The position numbers were made by a program. 64,000 bases of DNA from Escherichia coli (GTDB lineage: Bacteria; Pseudomonadota; Gammaproteobacteria; Enterobacterales; Enterobacteriaceae): NCBI RefSeq assembly GCF_003018115.1, contig NZ_CP027458.1. One strand, written 5' to 3'. Positions 46,301-49,300 of the stretch are shown in pieces (position 1 is the stretch's first letter; each line of letters opens with the position of its first letter).

Positions 46301-49300
46301 CTTTCAAGCGAAGCTGAATGACGGCATGAAACGCTTTATGAGTGGCACTCCTTCTTGCGAGAGACGCTTTTTGTCGTTCTCTCGCAGGAACAGGATTCCC
46401 CCTTCTGTAAGGTCGCTTTTTTCCCGATGAGGAAGTCTCTGCATTTACTGTCTGCGACATCTCGCCTCCTCTCTTCTCAGACAGGGATCGTTTCGCAGAG
46501 GATACTACAGTTTTTTGAAATCAGCGACTTGAGAATTGTGACGAAGATCTGTGTTGGCGCACAAATCAACGGGGATTACTGTTGTTTAATGTGATTTTTG
46601 TTGCGAAATGGCTGAAAAACAGGAAATGCCTTAACCTGTGTGCCGGCCCCGGGCGGGACCGGCGGTTTCTGGCATGTCGGGTGTCTGCCCCTGAAATACC
46701 TCACACTTCCGGAAAGCGGGGACTTCCGTCCCCGCCCGGCAGCTTACTTCCGTGCTTCGTAGGCCAGAGTTACCTGCACCACTGTATTTCCCCTGTGAAT
46801 ATTCAGCTCACATAACCGTTCCCTGAATATCAGTGAAAAACACAACACCGTGGCGCACACGGCGAGCAACCCAATAAGGGTATATTTCGTCATAAACTTT
46901 GACCTCTCTGCAAGGAAGAGGCTACAATCAGTAGTGCTACGTACTTCATGCAGGCCTCACGAGTTAATGGATTAACAAGTGGGGTCTTCGCATTTCTGGT
47001 ACCTGCGTCTTGCCTGAACCAGAAAGGCTCAGACACCCGCCGCGATAATACCACATTCCCTGTTGCTGACTATTCCCTCCATTTCCCGCTTTTCGCTACA
47101 GAAACGCCGGGGACGGGGAAAACTTGCTTTTTCCCGTCCCCGGGGTTGGACAACTGAGCAACGCGAAGGCGTCAGTGGATTTTTATGATCCTTCCAAACT
47201 CTGCTTCCATTTTTTTCATATCCTGTTCTCTTACTGCGACTATCAGTTGTTTTCCTGATTTTCGTGCCACTCTGGCAAACTGCATGACGGCAGATTCATT
47301 ATTCAAATCAGGCCATCCTGTACAATTAAAAATAATAATATGCTCACTGGCGTTCAGTGCATCCCTGATAAAAATAACCGCATAATCATTTAATGTTCTG
47401 TCAGAACAACTGTAAATCTGGCTGAAATCATAATACTTATAATCAGTGATATTCAGTTTATTTAAAAAACCATCAACTTCAGAAGCTGAGTCCCCACTAT
47501 AAGAACATTATGATTAGACGATGTGATTAATTCTGATACTGCCTGATAGTTCATTTGTTCACCTTTCATTAACAGAGAAATAAGTTAATAATGTAATATG
47601 CTTCATGCTTTTAAATATCGCATTTCAATGAGAACTCAATAGCCACAGAAATATCATTATTTCCGTGAGCGCCATACCCAGGGCGGAACAGGAGCGCTGT
47701 CTGCCCACAGACCACGTTTCTGCTGTCGAGCTTCTCCCTGCAGGACGGGAAGAACAGGATCGGTGTTGTACTGCTCATAAACCCATGCAGCGCCTGCACG
47801 GACCATAAACTGATTAACATTCATTCCGTCTGGTGCATAAACCTGCCCGAGAATACGACCATAACGATCTCGCTGAAAATATGTGACAGTAACCGTTTTT
47901 CCCGTAACCAGAGATTTCATTATTTTTTCAGACCACCGTCCATAGTCCTGTTTCTTTTCAGGTGCATCAATATTAACAAGACGGACACGCACCGGATGCT
48001 GAGATAACATGACGTCAATGGTATCGCCATCCAGAACACGCACGACCCGTCCATGAATATCAGCAGAAAAAACCTGACATGAAAAAACAAATAATACCAC
48101 TGGTATATATTTCTTCATTTTACTCTCCGTCACTGATTACCTTTCGTGATTGCATGAATTCCATGCCGGGATGAATAACGGCTCACACATCACGCCAAAA
48201 ATAAACCGTTGAATTGTGATCAATTAGACAAAATAAGATGAGCTGGCTTAATACACATATGGCTATGTGTTACTAAAAACGCTGGTCAGCCAGCCTGACC
48301 AGACACATAAGAAACAAAGTCTCATGCATTATTCAGCCTTCTGATACCTGGAGTAACGAAGGCTGCTTTTTCTGTCACGTATTTCCCGTGACGGCGTTAC
48401 CGGTTTCCGGGGGTAACATGTGACGGAGATTATATTTTTAATCTCCGTGTATTCATCATACCTGCTCTTGCTGATAGGATAACTGTGTTATATCGCAGGC
48501 TACCGGATGTGGCGCTGAATATAATGGTCATAGATAAGTCATACATGCCCTGCTCAGGGGATTAGCGATAAGACGGACCGGGAGAGTCATCTCCCGGTTT
48601 TTCTTTATCCTGCCGCGAATACAGCCCGGCGGTCTGTCAGATTCACCGGATAACCCTGCTGTTATGCATGCCACTGTCACCTCCTGCTTCTTGAAATTCA
48701 TCACATTTTTTATCCCTGCTGGCTTACCCGGGATGTGAAATATGTTAATTCTGTGATGTCCGTTTGAAAGACAGGGCAACTCCTTCTTACACCACTATAA
48801 TAATAATAACGATCTGCCATATAAGCCTGATCCCCCGGAGCTCCGCGACGGGGGTTATTTTTATCGGCACTTACACCGGCATGCAGATGCCCTCTTCAGG
48901 GCAAAATCCCGCCATGCTTCACAGGGTGCCAGCCGGGCCGCATTCTGCCAGGCCTCTGCCGCTTCCCTGAAAAAGCCACGAATCTCCTGACGGACGGCAT
49001 GACGCCCCACGCGCTGATAGCGATAAATACCGCAGTGCTCAGATAATCCACTGGATACAGCCATTTTTTATCCCCCCCTTGACCCGGCTCCCGGATTATG
49101 TCAGAAACATTATGAAACATCCCTGAACGGTTGGGTGTTTTTCTCCATCAAAACTCTGGATGTCTGTTTTCCCGATTTTTTCGCTGTTGCCCTCTGTCAT
49201 ACAGAGGGCTCTTTTATTCCGCCAGGATCGCCCGCTGCTCATCCTTGATCCGGTTCTGTCTGCGCACCTTTTCCAGGCGCGCCTGCGCATACTGTTCTTC

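Follow-up and report, generated by a model that had tools for sequence, protein, structure and literature searches.

A one-base G deletion very probably marks a null allele of a decaying accessory gene between finO and repA on IncF plasmids

The window, a 64,000-nucleotide stretch of Escherichia coli contig NZ_CP027458.1, contains an IncF plasmid region, and the locus considered here corresponds to the finO-repA interval of annotated plasmids that are 100% and 98% identical to it. The gene order, taken from these plasmids, runs on the minus strand from finO through a small ORF, a thermonuclease-family gene (nuc), a broken ORF, a GC-rich hairpin and hok/sok to repA2/copA/tap/repA1 (Table 1). 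As judged solely from the lack of a minus-strand promoter-like site between nuc and the broken ORF in a promoter and terminator scan, the two are probably carried by one transcript, with nuc upstream. Upstream of the nuclease gene, Rfam also identifies AS-pc02, an antisense to pHK01_099, on the plus strand at 48295-48437 (49 bits).

Table 1. Features of the finO-repA locus (window coordinates) and, in the last row, of regions that carry relatives of the broken ORF (coordinates of the respective loci).
Feature	Position	Strand	Basis or remark
CopA	45986-46075		Rfam
hok CDS	46744-46893	-	Hok/Gef annotation
sok antisense RNA / hok-sok locus	46883-47038	-	Rfam RF01794, 93 bits; downstream of the ORF
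GC-rich hairpin (element A)	47107-47145	-	-31.2 kcal/mol, z -5.1; starts 26 nt after the stop codon
Frameshifted CDS (pseudogene) of a 127-aa IncF accessory protein	47172-47554	-	Reading frames; intact WP_001109063.1 gene
T6 run, native sequence	47464-47469	-	GGT TTT TTA = Gly-Phe-Leu in the true frame
Lesion: GGGG, against GGGGG in the intact allele	47492-47495	-	Alignments with L001, L014 and L024
Shine-Dalgarno-like AAGGTG	47560-47565	-	5 nt 5' of the ATG; sequence reading
Thermonuclease-family gene nuc, signal-peptide-bearing	47657-48133	-	Annotation; SNc match, E 2e-15
topB-adjacent relatives	L019 6001-8624; L021 5130-7781; L023 699-3420; L026 958-3668		IncX-like topB-hha-hns regions

Read on the minus strand, the broken ORF occupies two frames. 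The first opens with an ATG at 47554, which is the start used by PGAP in intact copies, and encodes MNYQAVSELITSSNHNVLIVGTQLLKLMVF up to a premature TAA at 47464-47462 that overlaps the TTTTTT run at 47469-47464, while the second, adjacent frame is open from 47507 to a TGA at 47174-47172 and has the C-terminal end ..IIKIH. In an initial annotation of this DNA, the small ORF had been described as interrupted at the T6 run and resuming in the adjacent frame, with the break inside the run, so that the gene would be either decaying or slippage-controlled (phase-variable). The two-frame layout is real, the downstream frame truly codes for protein, and a single-base indel in the run does rejoin the frames, since one T added in silico gives a 127-aa ORF (the removal of two Ts gives one of 126 aa). 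Because the two frames overlap by ~43 nt (47507-47465), however, an indel at any point of the overlap would rejoin them. The break itself does not lie inside T6.

The position of the lesion was read from alignments with intact copies. The nearest of these, on plasmid pRM10466-2, is identical to the window over 398 of 398 bases bar one extra G (ATAGTGGGGGACTCAG, against ATAGTGGGGACTCAG in the window) and encodes the intact 127-aa protein (WP_001109063.1), which identifies the lesion as a change from G5 to G4 at 47495-47492; two further copies (L014 and P0003) likewise have GTGGGGGAC. The lesion lies 22 nt upstream of the T-run, in codons Val20-Gly21-Asp22, at the position of a degenerate Walker A loop. 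The T6 run, by which the frame had been thought to be broken, is also carried by intact copies (L004, L006 and L024). The loss of one G from GGGGG shifts the frame at codon 22, and the ribosome then reads nine wrong codons before meeting a TAA that lies by chance in the native TTTTTTAAA; the T-run does nothing more than supply this TAA to an already shifted frame. The broken allele thus has 21 native and 9 out-of-frame codons before the stop, with a further 96 codons untranslated.

Several observations argue that the full-length frame is a gene. A cluster look-up placed the exact intact protein on at least 1,000 contigs, each time under the name 'hypothetical protein', and intact versions of 127 aa are annotated in many homologous plasmids, which the initial annotation had proposed to look for. 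In addition, a Citrobacter F-like plasmid carries in the same finO-repA interval a 143-aa ortholog with ~50-52% identity. Comparison with this ortholog gave dN/dS values of 0.25-0.29, a ratio that is rough because dS is near saturation (1.4-1.6), and the value between both main E. coli alleles was 0.33. An AF2 model of the intact protein built on a 24-sequence alignment (pLDDT 85.8, pTM 0.82) was confident over residues 1-127, and showed a core alpha/beta fold in which the phosphate-binding loop connects strand 1 with helix 1; it superseded a first model from 13 sequences, which had a pLDDT of 71 and weak Foldseek matches (TM 0.5). The full-length frame is therefore both under purifying selection and the source of a foldable product. 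As a separate observation, some alleles are mosaic: P0009, P0011 (145 aa) and the cluster members P0078-P0083 agree fully with the IncF allele over the N-terminal ~80 residues but are like the Citrobacter-type 143-aa form in the C-terminal third, which suggests recombination inside the gene.

Scans of the intact protein against Pfam, NCBIfam and PADLOC returned no family and only noise, and in a profile search of the PDB the only significant matches were to P-loop fragments. The same kind of search in 1.84 billion representative proteins yielded only 41 matches, many of them fragments; the distant relatives recovered at full length number about a dozen (22-30% identity). These relatives have a canonical Walker A (GxTGxGKS/T) and Walker B (hhhhD, e.g. 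LILD). When they were themselves scanned against Pfam, the matches were mostly sub-threshold, generic P-loop hits on Walker A, with no specific family. A BrxF-like identity, as a PADLOC defence ATPase, was considered and rejected, because BrxF matched one relative only (E 0.0024) and had no match to the window's clade; the other PADLOC matches of the relatives (the best to mad8, E 1.3e-5) covered only the ~20-residue P-loop.

In the IncF/Citrobacter clade the sequence at the Walker A position is G-[DEN]-S-A-S-E-V-D and that at the Walker B position IIIFN, with VGDSASEVD aligning with GxTGxGKS/T, and IIIFN(-C) with hhhhD, of the relatives. The Walker A lysine, two glycines and the Walker B aspartate are all replaced, and IncF clade members match neither the Walker A pattern GxxxxGK[ST] nor the Walker B pattern hhhhD[DE]; the KYxDF and ARKxGKxLIV motifs are common to this clade and the relatives. 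From the model and these motifs we infer that the intact product is a bare ASCE/AAA+-like P-loop alpha/beta domain of 127 aa, without a lid and catalytically dead. Since the Walker A lysine and Walker B aspartate are lost, the product, if active, is predicted to be a non-catalytic binding subunit. When compared with the ASCE/AAA+ core as seen in NSF-D2 (1d2n), Cdc48, the RFC small subunit and TnsC, it differs in its length of 127 aa, in being without the helical lid, in its replaced Walker residues and in belonging to no curated Pfam, NCBIfam or PADLOC family. A literature search returned no name for the ORF and no study of it, only plasmid annotation tables that list the neighbouring thermonuclease.

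Run lengths were surveyed across plasmids with short queries centred on each run, for which only the exact allele reaches at least 99%; the lengths are those of assemblies, and such data leave room for low-rate slippage at G5, a homopolymer. The G4 context was exact in 6 of 233 plasmid records, which come from five strains isolated and sequenced in three countries (USA, Switzerland and South Korea). Five of the six match the window at 100% identity across 2,101 bases, which points to one fixed event, and the next-nearest plasmids (99.3% identity) are one base longer and have an intact gene annotated. Judged by these sequences, the G4 deletion is an event that arose once and became fixed in one plasmid lineage of Shiga-toxin E. 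coli isolates from several countries. In strain 2013C-4282 the identical G4 allele is present on two plasmid records, CP027580 and CP027581 (54.5 kb and 118.8 kb), whose shared G4 region may be duplicated or cointegrate-derived, or may reflect a split in the assembly. We consider it very probable that the copy in the window is a null allele of a decaying IncF accessory gene, with one fixed G5-to-G4 deletion, and that the gene is not phase-variable.

Among the alternatives to a fixed null allele, phase variation at the G-run itself, in which G5 (ON) and G4 (OFF) would interconvert at a useful rate, survives best and is nonetheless very unlikely. The lesion is indeed a one-unit homopolymer change, the commonest slippage product, but G4 is limited to one lineage with identical 2.1-kb flanks, in which all members found are G4; no G6 variant was found among the plasmid records surveyed, and no G4 variant among the ~120 copies of the second allele group, which also carries G5. 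Moreover, some intact alleles have other bases within the run (GTGTGGG, GTGGAGG), unlike a tract selected for its mutability, and other lineages have been inactivated at sites that are not repeats. Homopolymer contingency loci are the phase-variable genes of Neisseria, Haemophilus and Campylobacter, and their high-rate slippage tracts typically have at least seven units. The locus resembles them in that ON and OFF would differ by one homopolymer unit in the 5' part of the CDS; its tracts (G5/G4 and T6) are shorter, however, and the gene is without length polymorphism in more than 230 copies, bar one clonal lineage.

Less probable again is a programmed -1 ribosomal frameshift at GTT TTT TAA, a 'shifty stop' from which the G4 allele would still yield the full-length protein. 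A Phe-tRNA that slips back one base on TTT_TTT could still pair and would enter the correct frame (...MVF-LNKLNITDY), and an A-site stop codon can promote ribosomal slippage; yet the two-frame layout occurs only in the six G4 records, the homologs being single-frame ORFs, and the T6AAA sequence is older than the frameshift lesion. Nor is GTT TTT TAA a canonical X XXY YYZ heptamer; the downstream structure is weak (-12.7 kcal/mol, z -1.9), and no upstream SD-like stimulator was seen. We hold it to be just as improbable that the missing G is a homopolymer artefact of sequencing or assembly: undercalls of this kind are common in long reads, but here the identical allele recurs in six records from five strains sequenced in three countries.

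Slipped-strand mispairing at the T-run, with T6 OFF and T7 ON, was the phase-variable alternative put forward in the initial annotation; its likelihood is smaller still, and at the population level it is refuted. It would explain why one added T gives the 127-aa ORF, with the stop codon within the run, but the predicted variation in run length among homologous plasmids was not seen, as 101 plasmid records, with intact and with broken copies, matched the T6 context exactly, and 0 of 231 had T7. T6 is shared by intact alleles of this lineage, in which it is read as Gly-Phe-Leu, a T7 product would contain nine wrong residues (TQLLKLMVF replacing DSASEVDGF), and contingency tracts are usually longer than six bases. 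We likewise rejected slippage during transcription, at T6 or at A7, as the intact alleles share these runs, which are too short for it. Finally, it is scarcely credible that the downstream frame is non-coding and the 30-aa peptide the whole gene, since nothing more than the ORF layout in the window speaks for it, against a full-length ORF kept in Citrobacter at ~50% identity (dN/dS ~0.25), a confident fold over residues 1-127 and a profile search that yields full-length relatives; of the two findings by which the initial annotation could have been overturned, neither a short frame that is the whole gene nor a non-coding downstream frame was encountered.

The decaying-gene explanation, by contrast with those based on slippage, agrees both with the one-G difference from the intact copy and with independent inactivation at three or more other sites elsewhere. 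Fourteen fetched copies showed at least four such lesions besides the G deletion, and exact-match counts were taken from plasmid records. A T deletion outside any homopolymer, in GCTTCTGAAG, is found in 75 records, and a T5-to-T6 insertion in GTTATTTTTATC, another T-run than the T6 of the window, in 44. One copy (L010) has a TCA-to-TAA nonsense codon, and another (L008, LR890263.1) has a double frameshift (T5 to T6 and A7 to A6) whose parts compensate each other, so that the last few codons are back in frame, the gene still being broken by a stop at codon 71. By sequence comparison, there have certainly been at least four independent inactivating events. Exact-match counts alone put non-functional copies at 125 or more of ~240 plasmid records, and a systematic sample of every fourth entry in the match list gave similar proportions, but since database records are clonally biased, 'more than half dead' stems from a small number of successful lineages and not from many events. 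The gene was found in 195 of 5,426 complete E. coli genomes, and was plasmid-borne at 200 of 201 places. It appears to be dispensable, and is possibly costly, in its present hosts, and for this reason we regard it as decaying.

The locus shares with other frameshift pseudogenes of IncF accessory regions the single-base indel, the premature stop, the intact orthologs and the multiple independent lesions, and shows no essential difference from them; it only lacks a pseudogene label in the inspected RefSeq records, where this position has nothing or a 44-aa remnant ORF. This TTG-start remnant (47172-47306, minus strand) is annotated in some RefSeq records as a 'hypothetical protein' (WP_001058542.1), and in other records a 72-aa remnant is annotated for the T-insertion allele. 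The present reading thus corrects the annotation, in that a pseudogene had gone unmarked and a 44-aa remnant is listed as a protein, and it removes one candidate phase-variable locus. The case further illustrates that where a shifted frame stops is uninformative about where the lesion lies, AT-rich homopolymers such as TTTTTTAAA being places where shifted frames run into a stop by chance. The locus itself is an ordinary frameshift pseudogene of an uncharacterised accessory gene, with small direct consequences. What is mildly new is the existence of an unnamed mini P-loop family, apparently unstudied, that is tied to conjugation modules and topoisomerase III, together with the repeated loss of this gene from IncF plasmids.

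The tie to conjugation comes from the genomic context of the motif-intact relatives. All seven that were looked up lie inside conjugation modules: one is found between the genes for a PilQ-type ATPase and a PilR-type platform protein in a type IVb pilus operon, one between VirB2 and VirB3/4 in a T4SS operon, one directly 3' of a T4SS coupling-protein gene, and four immediately 5' of a gene for plasmid topoisomerase III, where in three of the four cases the stop and start codons abut or overlap. One of the relatives adjacent to topoisomerase III has an SNase-family nuclease two genes upstream, an echo of the pairing of nuc with the ORF in the window. This setting suggests that the family may help to process plasmid DNA around transfer, and, on the strength of its fold, motifs and neighbours, the intact IncF product, if it acts at all, would probably do so in plasmid DNA processing around conjugation.

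The topB-adjacent relatives, P-loop proteins of 140-165 aa, are homologous to the ORF product (profile E 1e-12 to 1e-4, 22-30% identity, with KYxDF and ARKxGKRLIV motifs in common). They keep the ATPase motifs and adjoin the topB start, whereas members of the window's clade have dead motifs and lie beside nuc and hok/sok, and from their sequences and positions these relatives look like a small, unstudied ATPase partner of plasmid TopB. A wider proposal would be that the mini P-loop family is confined to conjugative plasmids and that its conserved IncF pseudo-ATPase formerly aided transfer or establishment but has become costly, so that inactivation would be selected and not neutral, which would fit its repeated loss; this we put forward as speculation, and think it more probably wrong than right by a good margin.

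Downstream, the stop codon of the ORF meets the hairpin region. In none of 200 shuffles did the sequence fold as well as element A, which was missed by the terminator scan because it has no T-tract, and the hairpin is probably a terminator or an insulator between the nuclease-ORF unit and hok/sok. The homology common to ~4,700 IncF plasmids, which takes in the hairpin and hok/sok, sets in at 47175, one base ahead of the stop codon, in agreement with the initial annotation that the stop overlaps the conserved flank of element A. Element A with its flanks looks like a module boundary or a terminator cassette. The flanks (47107-47175) are conserved as CTGACGCC..GTTGTCCAACCCCGG / CCGGCGTTT, and in the ~4,700 IncF plasmids the sequence beyond the boundary at 47175 is usually a DUF2726/yihA gene. 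A second copy of the flanks is present in the window at 58640-58712, where it encloses a different, AT-rich stem and sits between a 203-aa ORF (58774-59385, minus strand) and traD.
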